This document shows, one piece after another, positions 1 to 26,439 of a stretch of DNA of 52,880 nt. The stretch is from Erysipelotrichaceae bacterium UBA3379 (GTDB lineage Bacteria > Bacillota_I > Bacilli_A > Erysipelotrichales > Coprobacillaceae): assembly GCA_002359025.1 (NCBI GenBank), contig DEPZ01000001.1, positions 1 through 52,880 of the forward strand. Direction: 5' to 3'. Both the position numbers and the translations under genes were made by a program. The notes beneath the pieces were generated by a model. That model searched no databases. It was not told where the DNA came from and worked only from the letters and a program-made list of their open reading frames with translations. The first letter of the stretch is position 1, and the number at the start of each line of letters is the position of its first letter.

Positions 1-785
1 ATATTACTTGAAATAGATATAGGAACTTCATAATCTAATAATAGTTTTAAACATGATAAAATATATGAAGCGCTATTATTTTTTTGCTTTTCATTTTTCA
101 TAATATAAGATCTTGTCTCTTCGTTGGCAACAGAACTATCGATTGTCGTGGCAATTGATCTAATTATTTTTCTATTAATTATAATTTTTTTCATAAAATA
201 ATCTAAATTTGTTCCATTAGTTATAATATGAATTTTAATAATATTTTCTTTACAAAAATCGAAAATTTTATCAATAATTAATTCATTAGATATTAAAAGT
301 GGTTCACCACCAAACAAACCTAATTCAATAATTTTATCTGGGTATCTACTTTGGTATTCTTTTATAACACTGAATATTTTTTCTAAGTTTATATCAGATA
401 TGATTCCTTTATTTAAAACTGGATTACATTGTTGATAACAATAAGTACATCTTAAGTTACAGGCATATGTAATGGCCAATATAATTGTTACAATAGATTG
501 ACTTCTATTAATTTCATCTTGATTATATAGTGTTTCTTTCAAAATATTTTCATTCTCAATATTAAAAATGTCTGGGGTAGTAAAATACTTTTTTATAGAA
601 GATGGTATTCGATTATTGTCAATATAATCTTTGTTCAGAACCATACACTTATCCATAAAAGAATTTATGACCAAATAATTCTCGTTGTCATAATTCTTAA
701 TGTATATATTTTCAGGTATTTTAAATTCTTCTATTTTTTCTTCATTAAGGCTATATAATTTATTATTTTCTAAAATACAATTCAT
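1..785 (-). CDS. Radical SAM enzyme, N-terminal 261 codons (C-terminus lies beyond the left window edge); RiPP-maturase-like
   Basis: Not in the supplied ORF track because it has no stop inside the window. Translated by hand from ATG 785-783; the frame stays open to position 3 (checked codon by codon). Contains AITYACNLRCTYCY (CxxxCxxC at Cys109/113/116) and GGEPLL. About 100 aa precede the cluster. RBS GGAAAGGTGA lies upstream. Confidence 0.8.
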   Translation of the reverse strand, partial: MNCILENNKLYSLNEEKIEEFKIPENIYIKNYDNENYLVINSFMDKCMVLNKDYIDNNRIPSSIKKYFTTPDIFNIENENILKETLYNQDEINRSQSIVTIILAITYACNLRCTYCYQQCNPVLNKGIISDINLEKIFSVIKEYQSRYPDKIIELGLFGGEPLLISNELIIDKIFDFCKENIIKIHIITNGTNLDYFMKKIIINRKIIRSIATTIDSSVANEETRSYIMKNEKQKNNSASYILSCLKLLLDYEVPISISSN

Positions 786-816
786 TTTCTTTCACCTTTC
801 CTAATACATATTTTTA

Positions 817-855
817 TATAAAAACTCAACTACTTAAAATAGCTGAGTTTTTATA
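817..855 (-). terminator. Intergenic hairpin between the short ORF and the radical SAM gene (possible attenuator/partial terminator)
   Basis: TATAAAAACTCA (817-828) pairs perfectly with TGAGTTTTTATA (844-855). On the minus-strand RNA only, three more pairs including one G-U wobble extend the stem to 15 bp with a 9-nt loop. U-rich sequence follows. Confidence 0.45.
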
Positions 856-864
856 GTTTAATTT

Positions 865-990
865 TTAGTAAAGTCTTGGATGTTCAGCTAACCCACTGAT
901 TTCAAATTTTTCATCATTAATTGAGAAATCTAATGAATCATTACGTTCCATTTCCTCTAATTCTTCTGCTGAAAAAATTACTTTACTCAT
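865..990 (-). CDS. 41-aa acidic small ORF, candidate RiPP precursor peptide
   Basis: ATG 990 to TAA 865 gives MSKVIFSAEELEEMERNDSLDFSINDEKFEISGLAEHPRLY. A G-rich SD (GGGGGGGTGA) sits just upstream. It lies directly 5' of the radical SAM gene on the same strand. Too short for the ORF track. Confidence 0.55.
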   Translation of the reverse strand: MSKVIFSAEELEEMERNDSLDFSINDEKFEISGLAEHPRLY

Positions 991-1020
991 TATTTCACCC
1001 CCCCCAAAAAATATTTTTTA

Positions 1021-1037
1021 TAATACTAAAAGTATTA
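1021..1037. promoter_or_regulatory. Perfect palindrome TAATACT-N3-AGTATTA in the regulator/short-ORF intergenic region (possible regulator box)
   Basis: Read directly: TAATACTAAAAGTATTA, 31-47 nt upstream of the small ORF start. It overlaps TATTAT/TATAAA -10-like hexamers on the minus strand. Confidence 0.3.
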
Positions 1038-1068
1038 CGTTATTTATCTTACCAATTATTAATAATTT

Positions 1069-2019
1069 TTAAATAGCGAAATCGCCATTATTAAAATACA
1101 CTTGATAATCAGCATGATAAACTCTTTGATATTCTTCTAAATTATTTTGGAGTTTGAATACGCTTTTACAGTTATATAAATATTCCTTAGCCTTATCATA
1201 ATTTTTCATCATAGAAAGGCAGCAGGCTGAATTATAGTATAGATAGGGTAAATAAATGAAATTGTTTATGTTTCTACAAAATTGTATTGCTTCTTCGCTA
1301 TGGTTTAATGAATTCAAATAATCTTTATTAACTAGAAACATCGTACTTATATTATATGAGATTTTTGGATATATATAGTAAAAAGTTTCTTCATCAGTAT
1401 AGTTATTGTCTTTATTCTCTAAGTAAAATAATATTTCTTTCCATAATGGATTATGTAAAGAAAAACAACATATAGAATAGTCTATCAAAATTTCTATTTG
1501 TTCCTTTGATAAATTAAATTTATTATATTTTTTTATTGAGTATCCTGATAATTCAAATGCTTGCTCTAATAAACTTTTTGCTACATTAAAGTTGTGATTT
1601 TTTTGAGCTTCAATAATTGCAAGAATATGAGTAGATAATTGTTTGTATTTGTTTAATTCATTTACTTTTTCGTTTGAAATGATTTGTTTATATAATTCTG
1701 TCAATTCAGTGAAATTTCTTTTTAATCTAATGATTTCAAATTGATTATAATATTCATCCAATTCTAATAAAGCTTTTTCTTTACTTAATTGTATAACTTG
1801 ATCAAAACTAATATCTAGTTTTATACAACATAAAACAAGTATGTCTAACTTTATGCTTTCTTTGCCATTGCACATTCTATTAAAATGAGAGTAGTCATAA
1901 ATTCCTTCAATCAATTTAGATTGAGATATTCCCTTATTATATGCTTTATCTAATATAATTTGTAAAGCCTTGCTTTTATCAAAAAATTCATCCATATTTT
2001 TCTTAGCCTCTTCTTTCAT
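1069..2019 (-). CDS. Rgg/RRNPP-type peptide-sensing transcriptional regulator (XRE-like HTH plus helical-repeat domain)
   Basis: 316 aa. The N-terminus GISQSKLIEGIYDYSHFNRMCNGKESIKLDILVLCCIKLDISFDQV matches the Rgg/MutR HTH pattern. The remaining ~240 aa are TPR-like helical repeats. Size and neighbourhood (small peptide genes) fit the family. Confidence 0.7.
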   Translation of the reverse strand: MKEEAKKNMDEFFDKSKALQIILDKAYNKGISQSKLIEGIYDYSHFNRMCNGKESIKLDILVLCCIKLDISFDQVIQLSKEKALLELDEYYNQFEIIRLKRNFTELTELYKQIISNEKVNELNKYKQLSTHILAIIEAQKNHNFNVAKSLLEQAFELSGYSIKKYNKFNLSKEQIEILIDYSICCFSLHNPLWKEILFYLENKDNNYTDEETFYYIYPKISYNISTMFLVNKDYLNSLNHSEEAIQFCRNINNFIYLPYLYYNSACCLSMMKNYDKAKEYLYNCKSVFKLQNNLEEYQRVYHADYQVYFNNGDFAI

Positions 2020-2176
2020 TTTTTATAATATAATAAAGTAAACATTAAAATCATTAGTATCCATTTTTTATTTTTTGGATATTATATTTATAACAATAGC
2101 GGAATGGCTATATATTTTTTTATTTGTTTTTTATATAATACCTTCGTAAAATAAACAATACAAGGAGGGGATACAT

Positions 2177-2323
2177 TTGAAAATCAAAGTCTTAATTGCT
2201 TTACTACTGATGAGTTCGGTAGTTAGTGGTACAACATTAGTTAATGATAATTTCGTTAATGTATCATCTGAAAAAACAGAATACACAGAAATTAATCCAC
2301 TTATTTTTGATTTTTGGTGGTAA
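2177..2323 (+). CDS. 48-aa secreted pro-peptide, candidate signalling pheromone (C-terminus ...EINPLIFDFWW)
   Basis: TTG start 6 nt after AAGGAGGGG. Product is MKIKVLIALLLMSSVVSGTTLVNDNFVNVSSEKTEYTEINPLIFDFWW, with a Sec-type signal (K-rich n-region, hydrophobic core, SG) and a hydrophobic/aromatic tail. Divergent from the regulator and followed by a strong terminator. Not in the ORF track. Confidence 0.55.
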   Translation: MKIKVLIALLLMSSVVSGTTLVNDNFVNVSSEKTEYTEINPLIFDFWW

Positions 2324-2330
2324 ATCTTCA

Positions 2331-2373
2331 GAAACCTTTTCCTTATTCTATGTGAAAAGGTTTCTAAATTTTT
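2331..2373 (+). terminator. Rho-independent terminator after the pro-peptide gene
   Basis: Perfect 11-bp stem GAAACCTTTTC (2331-2341) / GAAAAGGTTTC (2354-2364), followed by TAAATTTTT. Confidence 0.7.
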
Positions 2374-3028
2374 ACAAAGATTGTAATGTAATTTTAATTT
2401 TATATTTTTTAGGCAAAAATTCTTTAATTAATTCATAATCATATAGAATTTCATTTTCAACTATAATGGTATATCCCCTAATACTATTGTCATGCAATAT
2501 GTCGACCTTACTAATAGCATAATTGATAATACTATTAATATACATATATTCATTTACTAATAAATCAACATAAGCCTCTCTTGAATATTTAATATTTCTA
2601 TATTGCTCTAGATGCTCTTTTTTAATGTTTCCCAAGAATCAACAACCATGTAATTATTAACAACTCTTTTTTTGAAACTAAACCATCAAAATATATTCTT
2701 CCAACTTTAAATGGGTTCAGAAAGTTTGGTTTAAATGTAATTGAATAGCTGTCAGCAATACATTGGCATAAATATTTTAATGAACATAATGATGAATCCT
2801 CATAAAGGTTATGATTCATGAAATCATATAATATATCAACTTTTTATCTATGTTCATAAACCGAAAGTTTTTCCAGTACTTTATTGAAAAAAAGCAATTC
2901 TTCCATCTTTCAAATCCACCATATTTTGATAAGTAATATCTATTTCTTTATCTAATCGCAAGTAAGAAATTTTTTTGTTTTTGTAATTTAGTTGTGTATG
3001 TAGCTACTGACATTTTTATTTCATCCAT
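2372..3028 (-). pseudogene. Decayed gene of unknown function (several frameshifts and an in-frame stop)
   Basis: Track ORFs 2372-2635 and 2622-2819, plus upstream pieces starting at ATG 3028 (MDEIKMSVATYTTKLQKQK...), join into one ~215-aa reading only if frames are switched at A/T homopolymers and one stop is ignored. Confidence 0.45.
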
Positions 3029-3259
3029 TAATCATATTATATAATAAATTGTTCTAAAATCATATTTAATGTTATAATAACTTTGGAAGATCAAATAAAA
3101 TAGAGTTAAAAACTAAATTTATTACTTTTCAAGAACTAGCAGATGCTCTTGGGTGAAGCCTTCAGTAAGTTGCTCAAGTACATTCTAAAAGAATTATAAA
3201 AGTATTTCATATTGATAAGAAAAGATTACTTAAAGTAGGAATGTCCCCTTTGAATTTGT

Positions 3260-4502
3260 TTGAAAAGTATTTTGATCAATCTGTTGATATTCAATCAAAT
3301 GAAAAGACTATCTAGTCCATCGCCAAACTTTCTAGATAGTCACTCACGAAAAGAGACATATTTTTATAATGCTCTTTCAAAGAGAATTATATCAGACAAC
3401 GTATCTCCTTTCAAACCAAATTTTAAGAAAGGAGTTTTTATATACCGATAACTCAAAAAGAATTATTGGAAAAAGAAAGAATTATAAACGTAGGGGGTTT
3501 AAAAGCAAAAAAGCAGCAAAATTAGCAAAAGCAGAATTTTTTGAAACAATATAATAATATTTTACCAACTCGTATAAAATTAAATGATTTGATTAAGGAG
3601 TATCATAAAGAAGCTCCCAATCGCATTAAATTATCTACTCTCAAGGCTTATAAGAGATTTAAAAAAATGTCATATCACCTAGTTTTGGTAATCGTTATAT
3701 TGATGATATTACAACATTAGAAATTACACGTTGGATTAATGCTATTTCACAAAATGGATATGATGGCAGAATTTATGGTGAATCATCTACACGTAATATT
3801 TTACTGCACCTGTCTGGTTTATTCACATATGCTGTTGATCATGACTGGTTACAAAAGAATCCATGTCATAAAGTTAAACCACCCAAAGATTCAAATAAGA
3901 TTATAAGAAGACAATCTAGTGAAGAAAACTTCTGGGAAATAGATGAGTATCGCAAATTTATTAATACTGTTGAAGATGAATATAAAAGGGATATTTATGA
4001 ATTTATGTTTCTTACGGGTTTACGTATTGGTGAATTCTGTGCTTTACAATGGAAAGATGTCGATCTTATTAATAATAAATTAAGAATATCTAAATCATTA
4101 AGTGCGATTACATCAAAAATAACGTCACCCAAAACTTCACGTTCAAATAGAACTATTCAGTTACCAGATAGACTGGTAGAAAAATTAAAAAAGCAATATA
4201 TTATTATTTTTCAACAAGATGGATTTAATGATGATTATTATTTATATAAGGATCAAACTTATATCTCTATAGCTACACTTAGAAGATGGTTTAATGAAGA
4301 TGTAGAAAAATCTGGTGTAAAAAGAATAACAGTACATGGACTAAGACATTCTCATGCAAGTTATTTGTTATCAAATCCAATGATTTCAGAATTGTTAATA
4401 GCTGATAGATTAGGGCATAGTGTAGAAATGTTAAGAAGTACGTATGCACATATATATGAAAAAAGTAGAAAAAATCTTATAGATTTTATAGACGAATTAT
4501 AG
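3260..4502 (+). pseudogene. Tyrosine recombinase (phage-type integrase), disrupted
   Basis: The C-terminal catalytic half is intact in 4005-4502 (LTGLRIGEFCAL..., HGLRHSHASYLL, LGHSVEMLRSTYAHIY). The N-terminal arm/core-binding parts (KRRGFKSKKAAKLAKAEF; ITRWINAISQNGY) sit in other frames. Frame switches occur at the T-run 3537-3542 and the A-run 3661-3667, with a probable further one near 3450. An xis-like scrap lies at ~3100-3240. Confidence 0.8.
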
Positions 4503-4515
4503 TCATATAATCTAT

Positions 4516-4567
4516 AAAAACACACTGTCATTAATAACAATTATATTTTTTGACAGTGTGTTTTTTC
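4516..4567 (+). terminator. Rho-independent terminator downstream of the integrase remnant
   Basis: AAAAACACACTGTCA (4516-4530) pairs with TGACAGTGTGTTTTT (4551-4565), then a T-run. Confidence 0.75.
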
Positions 4568-4836
4568 ACTAATCAATATTAATCATTGATTTATATTTTT
4601 ATTGAATAATTCGTAATAAAAAAGATATTGTAAAGTATGCACAATACAATATCCCATAAAGATTAGAAAAGATTTCCAATTCTAATCTATATTTTATTAT
4701 ACTCATTTCCTTAAATTTTATTAAAAAAAAAGAAAAGTTGCACCATTCTTTTTTTTGTTAACAAAACGAATAGACTGAGCATTTCCTTTTGCATTAACAT
4801 TATATCTTAAAAACATCAAAAAGTCAATAATGATTT

Positions 4837-5562
4837 TTAATGAACTATCTTGAATCCAAATCTCGATTCCATTGATAATTTCCCATCATATAAGCACTCC
4901 TTTATAATCGGCAACAAGGTATATTCTTTTTGTTGAATATGTAATGCTTCTCTTGCTAATGGATTCGGGAAAAAATCTGCAAATTGCACACCTAAATTAT
5001 TATCAGACTTAGGAATAAAATTTATTGTGGTTAAATGCTTTTGAAGAGATTCCTTGCTATAAAACAATGTTCCTGTAGCTTTAAGCTGATGAAATAAATT
5101 CTGTAGTGTTGTATTGCTTCCAGAATCTGTGCTTTCTAAATAGACACTACCACATGCATTATTTGAAATAAGGAAGTGGTTATAATTTTCCATTAATAAT
5201 TGTAAAGAAATATAATAAATTTGATTAGTTTCCTCATTTCCATATAATTGCTCAAAATCATCAATGTTAATCGAAACAGCTAAAACATGCAATTCTACTT
5301 TCTTGAATAACTCTTCAATCTTTTGAAAAAACAACTTATATTGCTCTCTTGTTCGCCCTGCAAATTCACCTTTAGCTTTTCTTATATCAATTTCATGTAA
5401 TATTATTTGTTCATTACCAAAGCATTCTTTCTTTATTGATAATAATTCTGGCTTTAGTTTATTCTCATATTCTTCCTTACTAATAGCATATCCTGCTAAT
5501 GTAAAATTTTTGAAATTGGTATTTGGTTTTGATTCATCTAAAAATAAGTAGTATTCATTCAT
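4837..5562 (-). CDS. DUF3800-like protein
   Basis: Start moved to ATG 5562 (MNEYYLFLDES...), which is preceded by AAAGGAGGAATAAT. N-terminal LFLDES and C-terminal GVQFADFF motifs fit DUF3800. Last gene of the XRE-ImmA operon. Confidence 0.65.
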   Translation of the reverse strand: MNEYYLFLDESKPNTNFKNFTLAGYAISKEEYENKLKPELLSIKKECFGNEQIILHEIDIRKAKGEFAGRTREQYKLFFQKIEELFKKVELHVLAVSINIDDFEQLYGNEETNQIYYISLQLLMENYNHFLISNNACGSVYLESTDSGSNTTLQNLFHQLKATGTLFYSKESLQKHLTTINFIPKSDNNLGVQFADFFPNPLAREALHIQQKEYTLLPIIKECLYDGKLSMESRFGFKIVH

Positions 5563-5585
5563 ATTATTCCTCCTTTTTACTTTTG

Positions 5586-6242
5586 CTACCACCATTCATC
5601 TCTTTTACTTTGCATATCATATTCTTCATCAAAATAATCAATTTCTGCAAATTTATTTGGTGCAATCATATCTACAAATTCACTGAATAAAATATTAAGA
5701 CTTTCATCATCTTTTTTATAGTTATATTCATAATTTTTGTTTAATGTTTCTAATTTTTTTATTGCAGCTTCTTCAGATACATTAAAATTTCGTATTATAA
5801 AATCGACTGTAATATTATATCCTCTTTCTATAGCAATATTTATTATTTGATTAGGTATCAAAAGTTGTGCTGCAAAAAAGTTTGCTTCTACTTCCATTTT
5901 TGAATATAATTGTTCATCTATATTTTCGAAACTATGTTTCATAACAATATGCCCTATTTCATGAGTTATTGTCCATCTCTGTCTTGTTTTCAATTGATTA
6001 TCATTATAAAATATTATATATTTATCACCTCTTTTTATGGTTTCACCATCATTACTTCCTAGTTTAGAAGGATCTATGCCATACTTTTGTTTTGCCTTTG
6101 AATATGAACAAAGTGAAATATTATATAATGTTATTCTTTTTAAAAGCTTCTTTAAACTAAAAGGGAACTGTGTTATACCTGCACTTAATAGAAAAATATT
6201 GGCTGTACTAGTTGCTGATTTAAAATCAGGTTTATATATCAT
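5586..6242 (-). CDS. ImmA/IrrE-family (COG2856) zinc metalloprotease
   Basis: HEIGH motif (WTITHEIGHIVMKH). The likely start at 6242 (MIYKPDF) overlaps the XRE stop by 11 nt. Confidence 0.8.
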   Translation of the reverse strand: MIYKPDFKSATSTANIFLLSAGITQFPFSLKKLLKRITLYNISLCSYSKAKQKYGIDPSKLGSNDGETIKRGDKYIIFYNDNQLKTRQRWTITHEIGHIVMKHSFENIDEQLYSKMEVEANFFAAQLLIPNQIINIAIERGYNITVDFIIRNFNVSEEAAIKKLETLNKNYEYNYKKDDESLNILFSEFVDMIAPNKFAEIDYFDEEYDMQSKRDEWW

Positions 6243-6576
6243 CTTCATCGTCCTCATCTTCAAAAATATTATCAAACATAGTTCCTAATATTACAGTAGC
6301 TTTTTTGACTTCTTCTTGATTTAATTTATTTAATCCCCTATGTAATATTTCTATTTCAGATACAGAAGAAACCTCGTTGCCTAACAAATAATCAATTGAA
6401 ACCGAAAATATTGAAGATAACTTCTTTAAAATATCTGAATTAGGAACAACTCCCAAATTCTCCCAATTTGCTACTGTAGCCTTTTTTACATTAAGTTTTC
6501 GTCCTAACTCTTCCAATGTATAATCATTATTTCTTCTCAGTTGCCTTAAACGATTTGAAAAATTTTGATTTGCCAT
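6232..6576 (-). CDS. XRE-family HTH repressor (ImmR-like) with acidic tail
   Basis: LRQLRRNNDYTLEELGRKLNVKKATVANWENLGVVPNSDILKKLSSIFSVSIDYLLG is a canonical Cro/C1 HTH. AAGGAGG RBS. Confidence 0.85.
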   Translation of the reverse strand: MANQNFSNRLRQLRRNNDYTLEELGRKLNVKKATVANWENLGVVPNSDILKKLSSIFSVSIDYLLGNEVSSVSEIEILHRGLNKLNQEEVKKATVILGTMFDNIFEDEDDEDDI

Positions 6577-6609
6577 AAAATTACCTCCTTCTTATATTAT
6601 ACATTATAA

Positions 6610-6649
6610 ATATACTTTGTCAACAAAAAGTATATTTGTGATATACTTT
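6610..6649. promoter_or_regulatory. Three 9-bp operator half-sites (ATATACTTT / AAAGTATAT) interleaved with the XRE promoter hexamers
   Basis: ATATACTTT at 6610-6618 and 6641-6649, with the inverted copy AAAGTATAT at 6627-6635. A minus-strand TTGACA (6618-6623) and TATAAT hexamers lie within or next to them. Confidence 0.5.
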
Positions 6650-6862
6650 GTTTGTAATTATTTTTCTAGTAGCATACCTTTATTTAAATCATTGTATGCC
6701 ATTTGTATGCCACTTTCAAAGCATATGTCTTAGACTAAATAAAAAAGCATAACTTTCTAACACTCATAAAGTCATCAAATTTCGCTTCATGATTTAGAGA
6801 TATTATGCTTTTATTTTATCTATCAATTTAAGTTTAAAATCAAAATTATCTTGATTCTATCA

Positions 6863-8624
<1,762 letters not shown>

Positions 8625-8741: not shown

Positions 8742-9530
8742 TTATTTACATTTTCCAATAGGAATAATCATTGGCCGTTGTGTTATAGGATCTTTAATAA
8801 TTTTACTATTTAAACCATAAACTTCTCGTATGATTTCTTCATTAATTATTTCTTCTGGTGTTCCATGAGCTAGTAATTTTCCATTAGATATCGCAAATAT
8901 ATAATCTGCGTAGCGAGCAGATAGATTAATATCATGTAATACCATGGCGATGGTTGTACCTTTTTTCTGATTTAATTCAGTTAATAAGTCTAAAATTTCG
9001 ATCTGATAAGATATATCTAAAAAAGTTGTAGGTTCATCTAACAACAAAATATCTGTATCCTGTGCTAATGCTAAAGCTAGCCATACTCTCTGTCTTTGTC
9101 CACCGCTTAATTCATCTACACATCGATCAGCTAAATCAGAGATACCCATCATATCCATTGCTTCACTAACAATTTGATAATCTTCTTTGCTCATCCCTTT
9201 TAGTGGCTGACGATATGGAAATCGACCTCTTGCGACCAAATCAGCAACAGTTATTCCCTCAGGTACAATAGGTGACTGTGGCATTAATCCTAAGTTTTTT
9301 GCTAATGCTTTTGAAGGATATTTATGTATGTCTTTATTATTCAAATATACAGCACCATTTGAAGGAAGAACTAATTTGCATAATGTTTTCAATAAAGTTG
9401 ATTTCCCACATCCATTTGAACCAATTATTACACTAATTTTATGCTCTGGCAACACTAGATCGACATCCTTCACAATTGTATGATTTCCATATCCTGAGGA
9501 TAAATGTTCTGCATATAAACAATCTGTCAT
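8742..9530 (-). CDS. Iron-siderophore-type ABC transporter ATP-binding protein (FepC/FhuC-like)
   Basis: Walker A GSNGCGKST, signature LSGGQRQR, Walker B ILLLDEPT. Last gene of the operon with FecCD permeases. Confidence 0.9.
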   Translation of the reverse strand: MTDCLYAEHLSSGYGNHTIVKDVDLVLPEHKISVIIGSNGCGKSTLLKTLCKLVLPSNGAVYLNNKDIHKYPSKALAKNLGLMPQSPIVPEGITVADLVARGRFPYRQPLKGMSKEDYQIVSEAMDMMGISDLADRCVDELSGGQRQRVWLALALAQDTDILLLDEPTTFLDISYQIEILDLLTELNQKKGTTIAMVLHDINLSARYADYIFAISNGKLLAHGTPEEIINEEIIREVYGLNSKIIKDPITQRPMIIPIGKCK

Positions 9531-9531
9531 A

Positions 9532-10560
9532 TTAGCCTCCTTTATGATTCATTCTAAATAGCATCAGTAATAAATATGGTGCTCCTAAAATACCTGTAAT
9601 AATTCCTACTGGATAACGAGCTGGTAATAAATTTTGGGCAACTAAATCTCCCGCTAATACAAGAATAGCTCCCATAAGACCGGCTTGTAACATATTAGCC
9701 TGATTTCCTTTGCAGATTCTAGTAATGATAGGACCAGATAAAAAGGATACAGCTGCAATTGGACCACTGATGGAAGTTGCTACAGCAGAGAGAATAATTG
9801 CATTAACAATCAACAGTAACTTTGTTCTTTGAATATTTAAACCTAAAGTAGTCGCAAAATCTTCTCCCAACTGTAAAAGCATCAGTCTTCTACTTAAATA
9901 TACTAGAGAACTTCCCATGAAAATTACTACAATTACAATTCGAACCGCTTCTTCTATTGTGACATTATTTAAACTTCCGCTTAACCACCGTAAGGCATTT
10001 GCTACATCATATTGTGCTGCACGAAGTATAATATAAGAAATCACTGCTTGTAAGAATGCCTGAAATCCTAAACCGATTAAAATCATTCTGCCATTATTTG
10101 ATCCGATTCCCTGCGATAGACGATAGATCAGAAATGCTACAAGCATTCCGCCTAAGATTGCGCCAATAGAAACAGCATTTCCACTCCAATGAAGGATAAG
10201 AATACAAAATACAGCTACTGTACTAGCTCCAGATGTTACGCCTATAATATCAGGACTAGCTAATGGATTACCTAACATTTTCTGAAAGGTATTTCCTGCC
10301 ATACCAAAGGCTATTCCACAAAATACGCCTGCTAACATTCTTGGAAAACGTAATGTATTAACAGTAAATGATGCTCCTGGTATATTTTCATACAATAAGG
10401 ACTGAATAACAGTATTTAGAGAGTAAAAAGTATTACCAAGCATCATGGATAGTGCCATAAGTATACATAATATAATGCATAATATGATAGTAATGGTTAT
10501 AATTCTTTTTCTCTGGTGATGATAAACACGTTCTATAATTTCTCTTGTCTGTTTTTTCAT
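9532..10560 (-). CDS. FecCD-family iron-chelate ABC permease
   Basis: 342 aa polytopic protein with typical FecCD C-terminus (GIITGILGAPYLLLML). Confidence 0.9.
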   Translation of the reverse strand: MKKQTREIIERVYHHQRKRIITITIILCIILCILMALSMMLGNTFYSLNTVIQSLLYENIPGASFTVNTLRFPRMLAGVFCGIAFGMAGNTFQKMLGNPLASPDIIGVTSGASTVAVFCILILHWSGNAVSIGAILGGMLVAFLIYRLSQGIGSNNGRMILIGLGFQAFLQAVISYIILRAAQYDVANALRWLSGSLNNVTIEEAVRIVIVVIFMGSSLVYLSRRLMLLQLGEDFATTLGLNIQRTKLLLIVNAIILSAVATSISGPIAAVSFLSGPIITRICKGNQANMLQAGLMGAILVLAGDLVAQNLLPARYPVGIITGILGAPYLLLMLFRMNHKGG

Positions 10561-11552
10561 AAACTACGTATTTTCACCTTTCTAACAATATAAATAAAGA
10601 CTGGCGCTCCAAGAATTGCGGTTATAATTCCAACTTCTAATTCTGCTGGACTTGCGATTACTCTTCCAATAATATCTGCACCTAGTAACAGTATGCTTCC
10701 TCCCAATGCAGATAATGGAAGGAGATAATGCATATTCGATCCTATTAATAATCGCATAATATGGGGAACCATTAATCCAACAAAAGCAATTGGACCAGCT
10801 AATGCTGTTGTAGCACCACATAATAGTACTCCTGCAAATGCTGCCATTGCTCTTACTTTCTTACTATTTATTCCTAAGCTTGTGGCTAATTCATCGCCTA
10901 ACGCTAAAGTATTTAATGAAGATGATAAATAAAATGATAGAAGTAATCCTAAAATGAAATACGGAAGCAGTACTAAAATCATATTCCACTTAGCTCCGCC
11001 AATACTTCCTGTTTGCCAAAAACGAAAACTATCCATTACCTGTGAATTTGGTAACATGATTGTATTCACTAATGACATAAGTGCCATCGATGTTGCAGCT
11101 CCTGCTAGTGCTAACTTAATTGGAGTAGCTCCACTTTGTCCTACAGAAGCAATACCATAAACAAGTATTGCAGTTAATATAGCCCCTGTGAAACCAAGCC
11201 AGATATACTGACTTGGTGAAGAGATTGAAAAGAACGCAATTCCCACAACCACAAAGAGAGAGGCTCCTGTATTTATTCCTAAAATACTAGGATCTGCAAT
11301 TGGATTTCGGGTAATTGATTGCATCAGACAACCAGATACTCCTAAAGAAGCTCCAGCTAAAATACCAAACAAAGTTCGTGGTATTCTTGCCTGAACAACA
11401 CTAATAGAAAAGCTTTCTTTGTTGGTAAATAATGCATCAAATAATGTCTCCATATCTACTGATTTAGAACCATATAAAATAGACAATGCAGAAACAACAA
11501 TTAGACATAGAGAAAGAATCACAAACAAGAAATAAACATTCTTTTTTCTCAT
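10557..11552 (-). CDS. FecCD-family iron-chelate ABC permease
   Basis: 331 aa, paralogous to the neighbouring permease (GIITAILGAPVFIYIV). 4-nt overlaps at both ends. Confidence 0.9.
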   Translation of the reverse strand: MRKKNVYFLFVILSLCLIVVSALSILYGSKSVDMETLFDALFTNKESFSISVVQARIPRTLFGILAGASLGVSGCLMQSITRNPIADPSILGINTGASLFVVVGIAFFSISSPSQYIWLGFTGAILTAILVYGIASVGQSGATPIKLALAGAATSMALMSLVNTIMLPNSQVMDSFRFWQTGSIGGAKWNMILVLLPYFILGLLLSFYLSSSLNTLALGDELATSLGINSKKVRAMAAFAGVLLCGATTALAGPIAFVGLMVPHIMRLLIGSNMHYLLPLSALGGSILLLGADIIGRVIASPAELEVGIITAILGAPVFIYIVRKVKIRSL

Positions 11553-12571
11553 TCGTTTACCTTATCTGCAGCCTGTCCAATTAATGATAAATACTCATCA
11601 ATTGTTGCAGAAATACCTAAAACTGTAGGAGTCGCAGAACCTGCTAATGCACTATTACTATCAATAACTACTACTGACCCACGTTTAATAGCTGGAATCT
11701 TTCCAAAGATAGCATCTTTCTGTAAAGCTTTTAGGGTTGTATCATCACCATAAGTAACTAAAATATCTACATTATTTAAAATATCTGCATTTTCTGCGGA
11801 AACCGTCAAAGAGAAAGTCGTTTCATCTTTTCCCATTTCCTTAATATTTTCAGGGAATGATAAACCTAAGTCTGTAAGATAGGAAGCTCTAGGATCACTA
11901 GTTAAATATACATAGAATGAGCTAGTATCTGCTGGATTAACCCAAAGGAAAGCTCCGCTTTTGCCTTCTATCTGAGGATATTCTTTCAATTTATTCGCAA
12001 TTAATTGTTCAGTTTCTTTAACCAATGCTTCTCCTTCATCTTTCATCCCCATAGCTTCTGCATTAATCGTAACTTGCTCTCTCCAATATGTCTGCCATGC
12101 TACACGTGGATATGCAACTACAGGAGCAATTTTACTTAAGGTATCATACTCTTCTTGTGTTAATCCTGAATAAGCAGCTAGAATGATATCCGGATTACTA
12201 TCCGCAATAGCTTCATAATCTAACCCATCTGTATCATCATAGACTACTGGCTCTGTTACTCCTAATTTTTTAAATGCCTCCTGTGTCCATGGTGATAACC
12301 CATCTTTCGTTAATTCACCGAAATTTCCTTTTGAAACACCAACTGGAGCAACTCCCAATGCCAATGGGACATCCTGATTTCCCCAAGCTATGGTTGCTAT
12401 GCGCTCTGGCTTTTCTGTAATCGTTGTTTCTCCAAAAGCATGTTTTATTGTAATTGGAAATTGTGTAGATGTATTTGTATTTTTATTTTCATATTCATTA
12501 GTTGACGATGATGAACAAGCTGTTGTCATCAATAAGAAACCTGTAACTACTACAGCAAAAAATTTTTTCAT
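11549..12571 (-). CDS. Iron-siderophore ABC substrate-binding lipoprotein
   Basis: Start moved to ATG 12571 (MKKFFAVVVTGFLLMTTACSS, lipobox-like), which follows GGAGG. Periplasmic-binding-protein type 2 pattern. Confidence 0.85.
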   Translation of the reverse strand: MKKFFAVVVTGFLLMTTACSSSSTNEYENKNTNTSTQFPITIKHAFGETTITEKPERIATIAWGNQDVPLALGVAPVGVSKGNFGELTKDGLSPWTQEAFKKLGVTEPVVYDDTDGLDYEAIADSNPDIILAAYSGLTQEEYDTLSKIAPVVAYPRVAWQTYWREQVTINAEAMGMKDEGEALVKETEQLIANKLKEYPQIEGKSGAFLWVNPADTSSFYVYLTSDPRASYLTDLGLSFPENIKEMGKDETTFSLTVSAENADILNNVDILVTYGDDTTLKALQKDAIFGKIPAIKRGSVVVIDSNSALAGSATPTVLGISATIDEYLSLIGQAADKVNE

Positions 12572-12587
12572 ATAAACCTCCATACAT

Positions 12588-12605
12588 AGTTAGTTTTAAC
12601 TAACT
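12588..12605. promoter_or_regulatory. Perfect 8-2-8 palindrome AGTTAGTT-TT-AACTAACT between promoter and RBS of the iron ABC operon (candidate metalloregulator operator)
   Basis: Read directly. Lies 10-27 nt downstream of the -10 hexamer. The TTAG..CTAA architecture recalls DtxR/IdeR-type boxes rather than a Fur box. Confidence 0.4.
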
Positions 12606-12614
12606 TATGAAATA

Positions 12615-12643
12615 ATAATATCAGAACATAACATTTATGTCAA
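12615..12643 (-). promoter_or_regulatory. SigA-type promoter of the iron ABC operon
   Basis: Minus strand TTGACA (12638-12643), 17-nt spacer, TATTAT (12615-12620). Confidence 0.5.
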
Positions 12644-12692
12644 TACTATATTAATTTTGAGTTTCGTCTGATTCAAATATGATAATGTCTTA

Positions 12693-14214
12693 ATATACCC
12701 AAGTTGAATATGTCCTGCATGCAAGACATATTCAAAAATAAATGTTATGATATAACCTCACTTTTATTTGGAGGTTATTGTATGAGAAAGGTTGAATTAA
12801 GAATGAATGAAGAAAATAAATACTTGATTATTAAAAAGCTTGTAGATACCAACGGTAATAAAAAACGTGCCGCCATCAAACTCAACTGCACTGTGAGAAC
12901 TGTAAACAGGATGATCATTAGATATAAAACTTATGGGAAAGCCGGTTTTATTCATGGTAATAGAGGCAGAGCTCCTGCTACAACTATTCCTCTTGATATC
13001 AAAAACCAGATTATCAAGCTTTATGTTGAAAATTACAGTGATGCCAATTTTTCACATTTCTGTGAAATTGTTCAGGAGGATCTCAATGTCAAAATCAGTG
13101 ATACTACTCTAAACAAATGGCTTAGAGATGAAAATATCATCTCTCCCAAGGCTACTAGAAAAACAAGAACTATTCTCAAAAGTCAGCTTAAGGCGCAGCT
13201 GAAAAGTACTTCTTCTAAAAAAATTCAAAATGAAATCAAGGAAATCATTGCTTCCGTCGATGAGAGGGATGCTCACCCCAGAAGGCCAAGATGCAAATAT
13301 ATGGGCGAAATGATTCAAATGGATGCTTCTTCATTCGAATGGATTCCTGGTCATATCTGGCATCTTCACCTCGCTGTCGATGATGCAACTGGTGAAGTCG
13401 TTGGTGCCTGCTTTGATTATCAGGAAACCTTAAAAGGATACTATAATGTACTTTATCAGATTCTCAACAATTACGGCATACCTGCTATGTTCTATACTGA
13501 CAGACGCACTGTATTTGAATATAAAAGAAAAAACAACACCTTTGATGACGAGGATACATTTACACAATTTTCGTATGCTTGTCATAATCTTGGCATTGAT
13601 ATAAAAACAACGAGCGTCGCTCAAGCCAAAGGCAGAATCGAACGAATGAACCAAACATTCCAGTCAAGACTGCCTGTCGAACTTAAACGCGCTCATATCA
13701 ATGATATAGAGTCTGCCAATGAATTTTTAAAATCCTACCTAAAAAAATTCAATGAAAGATTTGCTCTACACATCAATAGTACCAAATCCGTCTTTGAAAT
13801 GCAACCTACATTGGAGCAGATCAATTACACACTGGCTGTTCTTTCACCAAGAAAGATTGATTCCGGGCATAGCATCAAATTCAAGAACAGGTTGTATATT
13901 CCGGTCACATCAGATGGAACGCCATGTTATATGAAGAACAGGATGGATTGCATGGTTATAGAAGCGTTTGATGGGAATTTATATGTGAATATACTTGATC
14001 AGATCTATTTGATGCAGGAGATTCCAGAACATATGCAATATTCAAAAGAATTTGATGAAGAGATAGAACCAAAGAAGAAAAAAGTCAAGTATGTTCCGCC
14101 AATGAGCCATCCATGGAAACAAGGTTCATATTTAAATTATCTTGCAAAACAAAAGCACCGCAATTCTGGTGCTAATGTTTAACATTTTTTAGGACATTTT
14201 CAATTTTGCTTGAC
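12693..14214 (+). mobile_element. Insertion sequence, IS1202/ISNCY-like
   Basis: Terminal inverted repeats share the core TTGAATATGTCCT (12704-12716) versus the reverse complement of AGGACATTTTCAA (14191-14203), 12/13 identical; the outer ~11 nt are only weakly matched, so the exact ends are uncertain. One transposase gene. The left end forms an 11-bp perfect hairpin, TTGAATATGTC-N10-GACATATTCAA (12704-12735). Confidence 0.75.
12782..14182 (+). CDS. DDE (rve/integrase-core) transposase with N-terminal HTH, ISNCY/IS1202-group-like
   Basis: Start moved to ATG 12782 (MRKVELRMNEE), which follows GGAGG. HTH ...AAIKLNCTVRTVNRMIIRYKTYGKAGFIHGNRGR..., then the DDE core (IQMDASSFEW ... YTDRRTVF). Confidence 0.85.
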   Translation: MRKVELRMNEENKYLIIKKLVDTNGNKKRAAIKLNCTVRTVNRMIIRYKTYGKAGFIHGNRGRAPATTIPLDIKNQIIKLYVENYSDANFSHFCEIVQEDLNVKISDTTLNKWLRDENIISPKATRKTRTILKSQLKAQLKSTSSKKIQNEIKEIIASVDERDAHPRRPRCKYMGEMIQMDASSFEWIPGHIWHLHLAVDDATGEVVGACFDYQETLKGYYNVLYQILNNYGIPAMFYTDRRTVFEYKRKNNTFDDEDTFTQFSYACHNLGIDIKTTSVAQAKGRIERMNQTFQSRLPVELKRAHINDIESANEFLKSYLKKFNERFALHINSTKSVFEMQPTLEQINYTLAVLSPRKIDSGHSIKFKNRLYIPVTSDGTPCYMKNRMDCMVIEAFDGNLYVNILDQIYLMQEIPEHMQYSKEFDEEIEPKKKKVKYVPPMSHPWKQGSYLNYLAKQKHRNSGANV

Positions 14215-24234: not shown

Positions 24235-26439
24235 CTATTGTTTACATAATTTCAATACAATTAATGTCATATCATCAACTCTATTTTCTGGTTTAGAAAG
24301 ATGAGTTAATAAATGAGCAATTTCTTTAGGATGATCTTCATCTATTAAATATTGATTTTCTTTTAGAAAAGAATAAAAATCACATTGTATTCCATCACTC
24401 ATAATAAATATAATATCATTCTCTACTAATTGTATTTTTTGCGTATATGTTTCTAAAGGAGAAACAATGCCCATAGGTAGTGTCTTTGCTTTAACTTCAA
24501 TAATCTCATGATTTCTTAATATATATGATGGACAAGATCCATACTTCACAAAATAAGCTAATCCTTGTACAAGATTCACCTGTAACATATCAAGTGTCGT
24601 AAACATATCATTTCTATTTTTAATCTTTAATAATGCATTAACTGATTGTATTGTATCCTTTAAAGAAATCCCATTCATAATCAGTTGTTTAATCACATCT
24701 AAAGTCAGCTTTGAATCATCACTTGCCTTTTGTCCCTGACCCATACCATCACTCAATGCAAAATATTGATTTTCATTCATAGAAAAAAATGTATAACTAT
24801 CACCACAAGCAACTGTTTCTTTAGCATATTGACTCACTCCGTATTGAACATAGTATTTCGCATGATGTTTCAATACAACATAAGTATAGCCTAATTGATG
24901 CATCGGTGTTTTTAACACTTGTATATCTAAACTTTCATTTAAATAAGTTTCTAGTATAGGCACAAGTTCATTTTCTATTTCATTTTTACTGACTTCATAT
25001 AAACCTATTTCTATATAATATATTGATTGTGATTCATAGTATTTTTTTAAATGAGCGATTTGAAAGTGATATCCTCTTAAATGTTCGTAGATATGTTTTT
25101 CTTCTACATTTCCTAATTGTAATTGATGGGAGAATTGATTAAAGACATCATTTAATAAAGAAAATTGATGATATAAATCTTTTCTCATTGTCTGGTATTC
25201 TTGTTGGATACGATAAACTTTATGATAGTCTTTATGATAATCTTCTATACTTTGTATATATTTTTGTGGTTGTAAGCAATACTGATGAATAAATTCTAAA
25301 TCTTCTTGATTATACTTTTCTTTTAAGCCTTTATTCATTAATTTTACCAAACGATTAGGACCATATTTTTGATGGAAACATGTAGATTGACTACTACAAT
25401 TTTGACAAACATCTTCATATATGTAACCGATATATTCTAAAGAATGATTATGTAAGGGCGTTTCATTAAATAGAGCAGTCATTTGTTCAAACAGATGACA
25501 AAAAGCATCTACTTGTTTAAAGACTTGTTGTTTCATTGTCATTTCCTGATAAGACGATGATAGAACAGGCTTGTATTTATGAATGGGTATAACCGCAAAA
25601 ATCAAACCACTTGCAACAATAATAAGACCATAATACTGATAAGAGAAATCCACAAAAAATGGTAGAATTAAATGAGAAAGAAAATAGAGTACTGTAATTG
25701 TTAGCTTGGTTTTACATTTCAGCATATAAAAGAAAAATAACGGTACCAGTAAAGTCAAAATATCATCTTTATATCCTTGATTGATAAGTAACATCAACAT
25801 AGATACATAAAATAATCCCGGTAACAAATCATCCTGACACTCATGATAAATCATCACCAATACAAACACTCTAAGCAAAATCATTGTAAGTTCTGTAGAA
25901 TAAGGTAATAAACTCATAATACACACCATAATCACAACAACCAATGCCTTCATACGTTCATGTGTCAACAATTCCGCCTCACCATGCATAAACAAAGGAG
26001 CTAAATATGCAAAAATCACAGTATTACAATATGTTAATAATGTCATAAGTAATGTCGAAAGCAAATATAACTCGCTATAAGCATAGTACACCCCTGCAAT
26101 CAAAGTTATTAAATAAGGAATATATCTTGCTTTCATAGACTGGAATATGAGACAAAACTGTAATAACACAAAAGTAATCATACACATAATAACAAGATCA
26201 AAAGAGCGATACAATAAGACATATCCTATTAATCCAATAAAAAAACTAAATAATGTCCTATACCCACACATAAAACATAAATAAAAGAAAGGTAATACAA
26301 ATAATAATGATGTTTTATGTATGTGTACTAATGATATTAAAAAAGATATGCATATGATATAAATCATGAATTGTAGTTTTATTCTTTTCATGCGACTTTC
26401 ATTGATTATCAATTCCATAAGAATCACCTCAAAACTCAT
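24235..26439 (-). CDS. spoIIE: Stage II sporulation protein E (membrane PP2C phosphatase)
   Basis: About 10 N-terminal TM segments plus a C-terminal PP2C domain (CGDSY...LSDGMGQG). Located upstream of tilS as in Bacillus. The exact start is uncertain. Confidence 0.8.
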   Translation of the reverse strand: MSFEVILMELIINESRMKRIKLQFMIYIICISFLISLVHIHKTSLLFVLPFFYLCFMCGYRTLFSFFIGLIGYVLLYRSFDLVIMCMITFVLLQFCLIFQSMKARYIPYLITLIAGVYYAYSELYLLSTLLMTLLTYCNTVIFAYLAPLFMHGEAELLTHERMKALVVVIMVCIMSLLPYSTELTMILLRVFVLVMIYHECQDDLLPGLFYVSMLMLLINQGYKDDILTLLVPLFFFYMLKCKTKLTITVLYFLSHLILPFFVDFSYQYYGLIIVASGLIFAVIPIHKYKPVLSSSYQEMTMKQQVFKQVDAFCHLFEQMTALFNETPLHNHSLEYIGYIYEDVCQNCSSQSTCFHQKYGPNRLVKLMNKGLKEKYNQEDLEFIHQYCLQPQKYIQSIEDYHKDYHKVYRIQQEYQTMRKDLYHQFSLLNDVFNQFSHQLQLGNVEEKHIYEHLRGYHFQIAHLKKYYESQSIYYIEIGLYEVSKNEIENELVPILETYLNESLDIQVLKTPMHQLGYTYVVLKHHAKYYVQYGVSQYAKETVACGDSYTFFSMNENQYFALSDGMGQGQKASDDSKLTLDVIKQLIMNGISLKDTIQSVNALLKIKNRNDMFTTLDMLQVNLVQGLAYFVKYGSCPSYILRNHEIIEVKAKTLPMGIVSPLETYTQKIQLVENDIIFIMSDGIQCDFYSFLKENQYLIDEDHPKEIAHLLTHLSKPENRVDDMTLIVLKLCKQ

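Follow-up and report, generated by a model that had tools for sequence, protein, structure and literature searches.

At the left end of the window, as we call the whole analyzed stretch of 52,880 nucleotides (contig DEPZ01000001.1), lies a group of genes that is studied here as a candidate locus for a peptide made on ribosomes and modified after translation (RiPP). On the minus strand, the gene for a 316-residue regulator (1069-2019) is followed by a gene for an acidic peptide of 41 residues (865-990), by a stem-loop (817-855) and by the 5' part of a radical S-adenosylmethionine (SAM) enzyme gene (1-785), of which 261 of 469 codons are readable while the rest lies beyond the left edge. Divergently from the regulator gene, an open reading frame (ORF) for a putative pro-peptide of 48 residues is located on the plus strand (2177-2323). 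A preliminary description of this DNA had listed these four ORFs, a CxxxCxxC motif and a hairpin, and each of them was found in the window where it had been placed.

Near-identical metagenome contigs were used to extend the locus to the left of the window edge; these contigs and the related loci compared below carry L designations such as L009 or L090. The exact regulator and 41-residue peptide sequences occur on 18-26 public metagenome contigs, several of them gut-derived, and L001, L002, L003 and L009 share 99.6-99.9% identity with the window across 6.85 kb. Beyond the left edge, near-identical contigs encode the complete radical SAM protein of 469 residues and then, in an overlapping gene, a transporter of 381 residues from the major facilitator superfamily (MFS). 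The leftward extension proposed in the preliminary description therefore recovered the full radical SAM gene, including a SPASM domain, and an MFS exporter, but not a leader protease. All five genes are intact on at least nine independent contigs from different samples, and ratios of non-synonymous to synonymous substitution rates (dN/dS) of 0.10-0.33 across the five genes indicate purifying selection. Neither of the two small ORFs is a product of chance, since the 41-residue ORF is conserved beside relatives of the enzyme (dN/dS 0.10 in comparison with L090, where the enzyme is 79% identical) and the 48-residue ORF is conserved as well (dN/dS 0.26-0.33). In the public near-identical contigs the 41-residue gene is annotated and the 48-residue ORF was left uncalled.

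In the regulator (dN/dS 0.11), an XRE-type helix-turn-helix (HTH) is followed by a helical domain that resembles tetratricopeptide repeats (TPR). Pfam searches gave TPR matches and a match to RNPP_C (PF18768) with E = 1.7e-4 and 21.6 bits, the gathering score being 26.5 bits, and several close homologues of the regulator carry a precomputed PF18768 match. A profile built from 21 homologues matched PlcR (2qfc) with E = 2e-9 over residues 20-276. The AlphaFold2 model of the regulator (predicted local distance difference test score, pLDDT, 89.8) is all helical and, when it was compared with known structures using Foldseek, the PlcR-PapR7-DNA complex 3u3w (TM scores 0.70/0.78) and 2qfc came first, followed by Rgg2, ComR, PrgX and Rap. 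The fold is thus that of the peptide-binding RRNPP proteins, as the preliminary description had expected, but its label "Rgg" is better replaced, because Pfam detected no Rgg_C domain in the regulator and BLASTP found no similarity to the Rgg protein of the Streptococcus suis ryptide locus. An identity as Rgg was rejected on these two grounds. From its profile match and its modelled fold, the regulator is a PlcR-like RRNPP receptor, for which binding of a peptide is predicted. Among 1.84 billion sequences its subfamily has 19 representatives at E <= 1e-30 and grades into a wider PlcR-like set of 1242 at E <= 1e-3; a metagenome scan with the regulator alignment returned five loci. Within the family, conservation is highest in the HTH region, which fits a shared operator.

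The 48-residue ORF, (M)KIKVLIALLLMSSVVSGTTLVNDNFVNVSSEKTEYTEINPLIFDFWW, begins with TTG and is preceded, at a distance of 8 nt, by the Shine-Dalgarno sequence AAGGAGG (2162-2168). In the DNA alignment its TTG matches the ATG start codon of the L090 homologue. A Sec-type signal (Lys-rich start, hydrophobic core, V-S-G) is joined to a conserved aromatic C-terminus, in agreement with the earlier proposal of a Sec-exported pheromone of the PapR type rather than a short hydrophobic peptide (SHP). PapR is itself a pro-peptide of 48 residues, and both layout and size recall it here. Homologues with a Lys-rich start, a hydrophobic core and a C-terminus ending in Trp are found divergently from regulator homologues. 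In L102 (regulator 72% identical) the pro-peptide reads MYLKIKFIITLLLMSSLVSITTLNNTNSINTSVNEIEYTEVNPLIFDIWW with the C-terminus ...EYTEVNPLIFDIWW, and its final 14 codons differ from those of the window by three synonymous and two conservative changes, the stop codon being kept. In L104 (regulator 49%) the C-terminus is ...NPIESYDFGFIW and in L100/L101 (regulator 33%) ...CEIPPTW, so the C-terminus varies in step with the regulator. At each divergence level examined a signal-bearing small ORF stands beside the regulator homologue, and in four loci it lies divergently upstream. The homologue of L090 (regulator 72%; L090:4438-4641) ends in ...EYTEINPYIFDFW and has lost its stop codon, TGG TAA having become TTG TTA, whereby 19 more codons are added; either the active peptide is released internally in this case or this copy is degenerating.

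The 52.9-kb window was scanned for the 16-bp palindrome ATAGC-N6-GCTAT with one mismatch allowed. About 1.4 matches would be expected by chance anywhere in the window, and the three that were found all lie inside 1073-2111. A perfect palindrome, ATAGCGGAATGGCTAT (2096-2111), is separated by a 22-nt spacer from the hexamer TATAAT (2134-2139) and forms with it a predicted regulated promoter for the pro-peptide gene (2096-2139, plus strand), in which the center of the box is near -42.5. As this box overlaps a -35-like hexamer of the predicted regulator promoter on the opposite strand, autoregulation is possible. Similarly, the palindrome ATGGCGATTTCGCTAT (1073-1088), which lies over the final five regulator codons, a 21-nt spacer and the -10-like sequence TAAGAT (1046-1051) make up a predicted regulated promoter for the precursor-maturase-exporter operon (1046-1088, minus strand), and the same arrangement of box, spacer and TAAGAT is present in L090 and L098. 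A good -35 element was not found at the operator-bearing promoters. The box centers lie near -42, where activators in contact with RNA polymerase usually sit, and start sites are predicted at about 1039 on the minus strand and about 2146 on the plus strand. Box, spacer and -10 element recur in the pro-peptide promoters of L090 and L102 and in the promoters of the cargo genes of L090, L098, L103, L104 and L097/L099, and in L100 an operator box follows the regulator that is only 33% identical; altogether the geometry recurs in eight other loci with regulators down to that identity. A third copy with one mismatch, ATTGCTTCTTCGCTAT, is located inside the regulator coding sequence (1286-1301) and is kept in L097 and L099; it may reflect coincidental coding conservation or an internal binding site.

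Alternatively, the 48-residue ORF might encode an unrelated small secreted peptide, with the regulator working free of a peptide or with another ligand. Some RRNPP-like regulators are indeed orphans, the ORF is uncalled in the near-identical public contigs, and its L090 homologue runs on for 19 codons without its stop codon. However, a signal-bearing ORF adjoins the regulator homologues at all divergence levels examined, the pro-peptide promoter bears the family operator at the position of an activator, the C-terminus of the pro-peptide changes along with the regulator, the Shine-Dalgarno sequence is strong, and size and layout are as in PlcR/PapR. We therefore consider this alternative improbable and retain the 48-residue peptide as the candidate pheromone of the PlcR-like regulator.

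A simple terminator scan missed two hairpins because their stems are AT-rich, and folding revealed them. Between the precursor and the maturase genes, the stem-loop at 817-855 (minus strand) is followed by a T-run and has a folding energy of -19 kcal/mol (z = -6.3); none of 200 shuffled sequences folded as well. L090 has a hairpin of different sequence but of -15.9 kcal/mol at the equivalent place. This stem-loop is likely a partial terminator that holds the precursor transcript above the enzyme transcript. The other, a two-way hairpin (inverted repeat I3, 2320-2375), lies between the stop codons of the pro-peptide and of a convergent ORF of 87 residues, shows folding energies of -18.4 and -21.5 kcal/mol (z = -4.4 and -5.9) and is partly conserved in L090. 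The ribosome-binding site of the precursor gene is formed by a run of eight G residues (998-1005, minus strand), 7 nt before the ATG. G8 is found in the window, L002 and L008, G7 in L004 and G6 in six other contigs, and this variation is the only indel within 6.85 kb of 99.6-99.9% identical sequence. It could represent slippage-based tuning of expression or a homopolymer sequencing error.

In the maturase fragment encoded in the window, the cysteines C109-x3-C113-x2-C116 follow an N-terminal region of about 100 residues, and Pfam matches to Radical_SAM and Fer4_12 were obtained. The complete protein was taken from L009 (6064-7470), a contig of 99.6% identity, and scored 409.5 bits with the NCBIfam model NF040899 ("radical SAM/SPASM ryptide class RiPP maturase"; curated equivalog cut-off 600 bits), the alignment covering model positions 5-457 of 464; the window fragment alone scored 162 bits. 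NF040899 is the sole strong family match, the second-best being TIGR04463 with 80 bits, and ten other non-streptococcal relatives of the maturase that were scanned gave 301-490 bits. The enzyme of the Rgg-linked S. suis ryptide locus, which is of the RrrB type, is 42% identical over 462 residues (E = 8e-121), and we place the maturase in the ryptide (RrrB-like) clade. The question raised in the preliminary description of whether the enzyme would group with non-RiPP radical SAM enzymes is thereby settled in favor of the RiPP maturases, and the SPASM domain that it had suggested looking for is present in the full-length protein as a match to TIGR04085. In 43-52 homologues the residues C358, C379, C414, C417, C423, C427 and C439 are invariant and form the canonical pattern. 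The AlphaFold2 model (pLDDT 92) aligned over its full length with CteB and SuiB (5v1t) as the closest structures, both of them peptide maturases with N-terminal leader-binding RiPP recognition element (RRE) domains. Residues 1-95 of the maturase are modelled as strands followed by helices and gave no PqqD/RRE sequence match, although this N-terminal domain was not searched alone. Homologues with 35-50% identity occur in Lactococcus lactis, Butyrivibrio, Lachnospiraceae and many metagenomic bacteria. A scan of genome contigs with the maturase alignment returned distant maturases only (20-30% identity), as the back-translated patterns used for it were generic SPASM/radical SAM motifs. Also, the database proteins P0029-P0038, P0042 and P0055 (550-675 residues) join an HTH or LysR domain to a radical SAM domain of the ryptide-like type, which could mean genuine fusions or else gene calls that read through from regulator and precursor into the enzyme.

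The MFS exporter is 40% identical to the exporter of the Lactococcus locus and 34% identical to that of L093, whereas BLASTP detected no similarity to the exporters of S. suis and Streptococcus pseudintermedius, which are 58% identical to each other. These relationships place the window in a branch with R-[L/R]-Y cores that is distinct from the RRRY branch, and Lactococcus, L093, L105 and the window make up a sublineage with an MFS exporter of its own type. The gene order precursor, radical SAM enzyme, overlapping MFS gene is common to the loci except for L105, which has its precursor gene downstream of the MFS gene. With respect to regulation, Rgg-type regulators stand beside the ryptide-like operons of S. 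suis, S. pseudintermedius and Lactococcus, a canonical SHP being read in S. suis only (22 residues, MKREKLVLLLIVLEGIIIIGVG). L093 (1515-3454) and L105 (8030-10096) encode HTH/TPR regulators of 605-625 residues, apparently tandem duplications, with a signal-bearing small ORF near each. In L092 (enzyme 72% identical; positions 1-1064), the maturase gene begins only about 1 kb after the end of the precursor gene, and the DNA between them is apparently non-coding.

The precursor peptide, MSKVIFSAEELEEMERNDSLDFSINDEKFEISGLAEHPRLY, consists of a leader with the motif F-S-x-E-E-L-x-x-M and a C-terminal core H-P-R-L-Y that ends in R39-L40-Y41; it contains neither Cys nor Trp, and its core has no Lys. 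For comparison, small ORFs beside seven relatives of the enzyme were read. The precursors of L090 (MSKVVFSVEELNEMEKNDSLDFSINDEKFEISGLADHPRLY), L105 (MYDLEFTVDELEEMRENDLICIGSYVQEDANNPRRY, ending in PRRY) and S. suis (MQIEFTSEELMQMKTIDELMSIVQDTPGEIVPAGPFITRRRY, ending in RRRY), as well as those with the C-termini ...GLADHPRLY (L092), ...VRITHRRY (L093), ...KPTSPVRLY (Lactococcus) and ...SKYITRRRY (S. pseudintermedius), all share the leader F/L-S/T-x-E-E-L/F-x-x-M and a terminal R-x-Y directly followed by the stop codon. M1, E9, E10, M14, R39 and Y41 are invariant in an alignment of six precursors, and two precursors outside this alignment likewise terminate in R-x-Y.

RrrB acts on the 41-residue precursor RrrA, in which it links Arg and Tyr at the C-terminus through a carbon-carbon bond, and it tolerates N-terminally truncated substrates (PMC9389541, PMC7670169). 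The corresponding operon comprises peptide, radical SAM enzyme and transporter (PMC12445099). In the preliminary description the absence of Cys and Trp from the precursor had been taken to exclude thioether (sactipeptide or ranthipeptide) and Lys-Trp chemistry, which we confirm, and to point to a possibly new product and crosslink. However, only these two chemistries had been weighed there and the Arg-Tyr class of the ryptides had been left unconsidered; given RrrA and RrrB, a precursor without Cys and Trp is just what would be expected of a ryptide-type substrate. The chemistries of sactipeptides, ranthipeptides and streptide were discarded because the precursor lacks Cys and Trp and those enzyme families score at most 80 bits. 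From the match to the maturase family, the leader motif and the C-terminal R-x-Y, the product is likely an Arg-Tyr cyclized ryptide-like peptide and not the outcome of new chemistry.

Gene content, homologies and folds agree with the circuit proposed in the preliminary description, in which an RRNPP-type pheromone system precedes a RiPP operon of precursor and radical SAM/SPASM enzyme, and we consider it probable that the locus serves the biosynthesis of a ryptide-like ribosomal peptide under the control of cell density. Accompanying these are the conserved geometry of operators and promoters and the purifying selection on the genes. In the mechanism that we propose, the 48-residue pro-peptide would leave the cell via Sec and be processed extracellularly, so that a short aromatic piece of its C-terminus, from ...NPLIFDFWW, is released. 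Once taken up again, this piece would bind to the PlcR-like regulator, and the complex of the two would then occupy the ATAGC-N6-GCTAT palindromes about 42 bp upstream of the two start sites, a position typical of an activator that substitutes for a missing -35 element. Occupation of the operator at the pro-peptide gene would give positive feedback, and the operator in the last regulator codons would drive precursor, radical SAM and MFS genes, with the hairpin 3' of the precursor gene keeping precursor mRNA in excess. The radical SAM/SPASM enzyme would bind the conserved leader F-S/T-x-E-E-L-x-x-M and, by analogy with RrrB, join the side chain of Arg39 to the Tyr41 ring carbon ortho to the hydroxyl, giving a small macrocycle, after which a protease would remove the leader and the MFS protein would export the product. 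Processing and binding of the peptide, activation rather than repression, the exact crosslink and a biological role of the product are what we infer in this scheme.

Several observations weigh against this reading. On the side of the regulatory circuit, the regulator falls below the gathering score of RNPP_C, the operator sequence differs from the PlcR box, and no peptide importer was identified. On the biosynthetic side, no dedicated leader protease was identified, the full-length maturase does not reach the equivalog cut-off of NF040899, the exporter lacks the similarity to its streptococcal counterparts mentioned above, and the precursor has PRL (P-R-L-Y) instead of the RRR motif that gives the streptococcal ryptide subfamily its name. 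Furthermore, reviews differ on the carbon of the ryptide Arg that is linked, naming either C-gamma in a 16-membered ring (PMC9389541) or C-delta (PMC7670169, PMC11851443). According to an atom count, a 16-membered ring implies an Arg at Tyr-3, a position occupied by Pro in the window precursor; if the 16-membered ring needs that Arg, this sublineage would close a smaller ring via the invariant Arg at Tyr-2. Finally, the integrase of the island on which the locus lies is in fragments, so the element may be decaying.

Alternatively, in place of the ryptide Arg-Tyr bond the enzyme might install a crosslink so far undescribed, or a ring of a clearly different kind, as the preliminary description had supposed. 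Radical SAM/SPASM relatives at such a distance sometimes differ in chemistry; the S. suis enzyme is just 42% identical and the equivalog cut-off is missed, the core is H-P-R-L-Y as compared to T-R-R-R-Y, the window belongs to the sublineage with its own type of MFS exporter, and Pro would take the place of the reacting residue if the streptococcal crosslink used the Arg at Tyr-3. In contrast, no core residues other than the Arg at Tyr-2 and the C-terminal Tyr are invariant among the six precursors of the alignment, with two more ending in R-x-Y, and this is what an enzyme that crosslinks Arg and Tyr would conserve. RrrB has been reported not to accept Arg-to-Lys and Tyr-to-Phe substitutions (PMC7670169), and every other RiPP maturase family scores at most 80 bits. 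A crosslink of a different kind is therefore unlikely in our view, though it deserves more weight than the other alternatives, and a ryptide-like Arg-Tyr bond remains the preferred assignment.

The locus is part of an island that spans about 9 kb and adjoins the 3' end of lysS (approximately 2372-6860 of the window plus L009:8603-9233 beyond the left edge). After the MFS gene, a class II aminoacyl-tRNA synthetase fragment of 59 codons is a copy of about the last 50 codons of lysS (177 bp, 93% identity), and as the lysS 3' end is thus repeated on both sides, the region between was integrated there as an island. Besides the locus and two small ORFs, it carries an HTH/M78 peptidase gene pair (6232-6576 and 5586-6275), a DUF3800 gene (4837-5595) and a fragmented tyrosine recombinase gene (3369-3554, 3541-3720 and 4005-4502). 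The corresponding island of L090, at the same lysS site, is shorter and lacks the integrase. Relatives of the regulator were not found in IMG/VR viral contigs, nor relatives of the locus DNA or of the enzyme among PLSDB plasmids, and these collections thus give no evident sign that the island is borne by a phage or plasmid. The split integrase (3369-4502), the variable G-run in the precursor's ribosome-binding site and the spacing of about 1 kb between precursor and enzyme genes in L092 could be taken to mean that the mobile element is dead and that the locus, as a decaying remnant on it, yields no product. However, the five genes are intact on at least nine independent contigs from different samples, all of them are under purifying selection, and operators and promoters are conserved, which makes a remnant very improbable and a functional ryptide-like operon the better explanation.

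On the other side of the island, lysS (6863-8353) is controlled by a T-box leader (Rfam RF00230, 98.6 bits; 8387-8618, minus strand). Together with ftsH, tilS, a histidine kinase gene, bipA, gdpP and spoIIE (24235-26439), the last already noticed in the preliminary description, this points to a stretch of chromosome from a spore-forming bacterium of the Bacillota. The GC content within the window is 23-35%. Named members of the protein clusters to which window proteins belong (glycoside hydrolase GH1 and iron ABC transporter genes) come from Faecalibacillus, Thomasclavelia and Massilimicrobiota, all Erysipelotrichales. The host is therefore probably a member of this order, although the GH1 and iron ABC genes could have been transferred; that it is not a streptococcus, as had been proposed, is borne out, and the "Bacillus-like backbone" is better read as that of Erysipelotrichales. 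An operon for an iron-siderophore ABC transporter (8742-14182) has a GC fraction of 0.33-0.36, compared to 0.23-0.30 around it, and its permeases are identical to Massilimicrobiota and Thomasclavelia proteins and occur on at least 1000 contigs, which suggests recent horizontal spread of this operon.

Members of the regulator family, together with pro-peptide and box, also precede cargo that differs from the one described here. In L104 (2242-7628) the cargo consists of two Cys-rich peptides of 41-44 residues, a radical SAM enzyme of 434 residues, an ABC exporter and a CPBP protease, and in L100 (3269-7540) of an acidic peptide of 32 residues, a radical SAM enzyme of 564 residues, judged from its sequence and without a family search to be of the B12 type, and an MFS protein. 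L103 (859-6461) combines a secreted Cys-rich peptide of 74 residues with a 433-residue protein and permeases, and L102 (5704-9504) a Cys-rich peptide with MFS and ABC genes. In L097 and L099 (regulators 72-75% identical) the cargo is possibly decayed. A bolder interpretation, which we put forward tentatively, is that regulator, Sec-type pro-peptide and two ATAGC-N6-GCTAT operators form a portable quorum-sensing cassette that was recombined with several unrelated radical SAM peptide operons in gut Erysipelotrichales-like bacteria (here and in L104, L100 and L103), as an uncharted counterpart of the streptococcal Rgg/SHP network of radical SAM RiPPs, and that the enzyme of the window closes a smaller Arg(i)-Tyr(i+2) ring than that of the streptococcal ryptide.

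Ryptides have so far been described from streptococci under Rgg/SHP control. Together with its relatives from Lactococcus, Butyrivibrio/Lachnospiraceae and Erysipelotrichales-like contigs, the present locus indicates that the precursor-enzyme pair is distributed across gut Bacillota and combined with at least three kinds of peptide-sensing regulator. As the control module can be read from the sequence (pro-peptide, receptor and an operator with constant spacing to the -10 element), it would offer a direct handle for switching on an otherwise silent cluster, either through addition of the C-terminal peptide in synthetic form or through transfer of regulator and box to a reporter strain, and the same handle should serve other radical SAM peptide operons that carry the cassette. 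Also, the core variants PRLY, VRLY, HRRY, PRRY and RRRY constitute a natural panel of substrates for an Arg-Tyr crosslinking enzyme.

In comparison with the PlcR/PapR system of the Bacillus cereus group (2qfc, 3u3w), the locus shares a regulator with HTH and TPR-like fold, a neighboring gene for a Sec-type pro-peptide that likely bears the signal at its C-terminal end, and a 16-bp palindromic operator before the pro-peptide gene and the targets. However, the regulators are only 15-16% identical, the pro-peptide gene lies divergently upstream here and downstream in PlcR/PapR, the PlcR box (TATGNAN4TNCATA) is unlike the ATAGC-N6-GCTAT operator, and the target is one adjacent RiPP operon instead of a dispersed virulence regulon. 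In pneumococcus, TprA/PhrA controls a lanthipeptide cluster. As in that case and in the RRNPP systems beside 196 biosynthetic clusters, most frequently of RiPPs, that were found in the RRNPP_detector survey (PMC10075063), a one-component receptor and a pro-peptide adjoin a RiPP cluster that is presumed to be density-regulated; Erysipelotrichaceae are absent from the bacterial families listed in that survey. The streptide (str/sui) operon is similar in that a precursor, a radical SAM/SPASM enzyme and a transporter are under quorum-sensing control and in that the enzyme model aligns fully with SuiB (5v1t), but it has an enzyme of another family and a Lys-Trp crosslink, whereas the core described here is without Trp or Lys.

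Radical SAM RiPPs linked to Rgg/SHP, ryptides included, are well described in streptococci (PMC9389541, PMC13361665, PMC12445099), and the features by which that network is recognized, a regulator with Rgg_C and an SHP gene of about 20-25 residues, are absent from the window locus. Closest is the ryptide (RRR subfamily) cluster rrrA-rrrB-transporter of S. suis under shp/rgg control (Caruso et al., 2019, to the extent that it is cited in PMC9389541, PMC7670169 and PMC12445099). Both have a precursor of about 41 residues with the leader F-S/T-x-E-E-L-x-x-M, an Arg near the C-terminal Tyr and a stop codon right after it, a radical SAM/SPASM enzyme of the same length and Cys pattern (42% identity), an overlapping downstream MFS gene and a peptide-pheromone regulator directly upstream. 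In contrast, the regulator is PlcR-like here and Rgg there, the pheromone a Sec-type pro-peptide of 48 residues here and an SHP of 22 residues there, the core PRLY as compared to RRRY, the MFS proteins are not detectably related, the enzyme stays below the equivalog cut-off, and the locus resides on an island at lysS in an Erysipelotrichales-like gut host. Our literature search found no description of this regulator subfamily, of its operator or of their pairing with a ryptide-type operon. What is new, then, is that a PlcR/PapR-type cassette with a defined operator replaces Rgg/SHP, that the core is PRLY and the exporter a different one, and that the operon lies on an island in a non-streptococcal gut bacterium, which is a new combination of known parts rather than a new kind of system.

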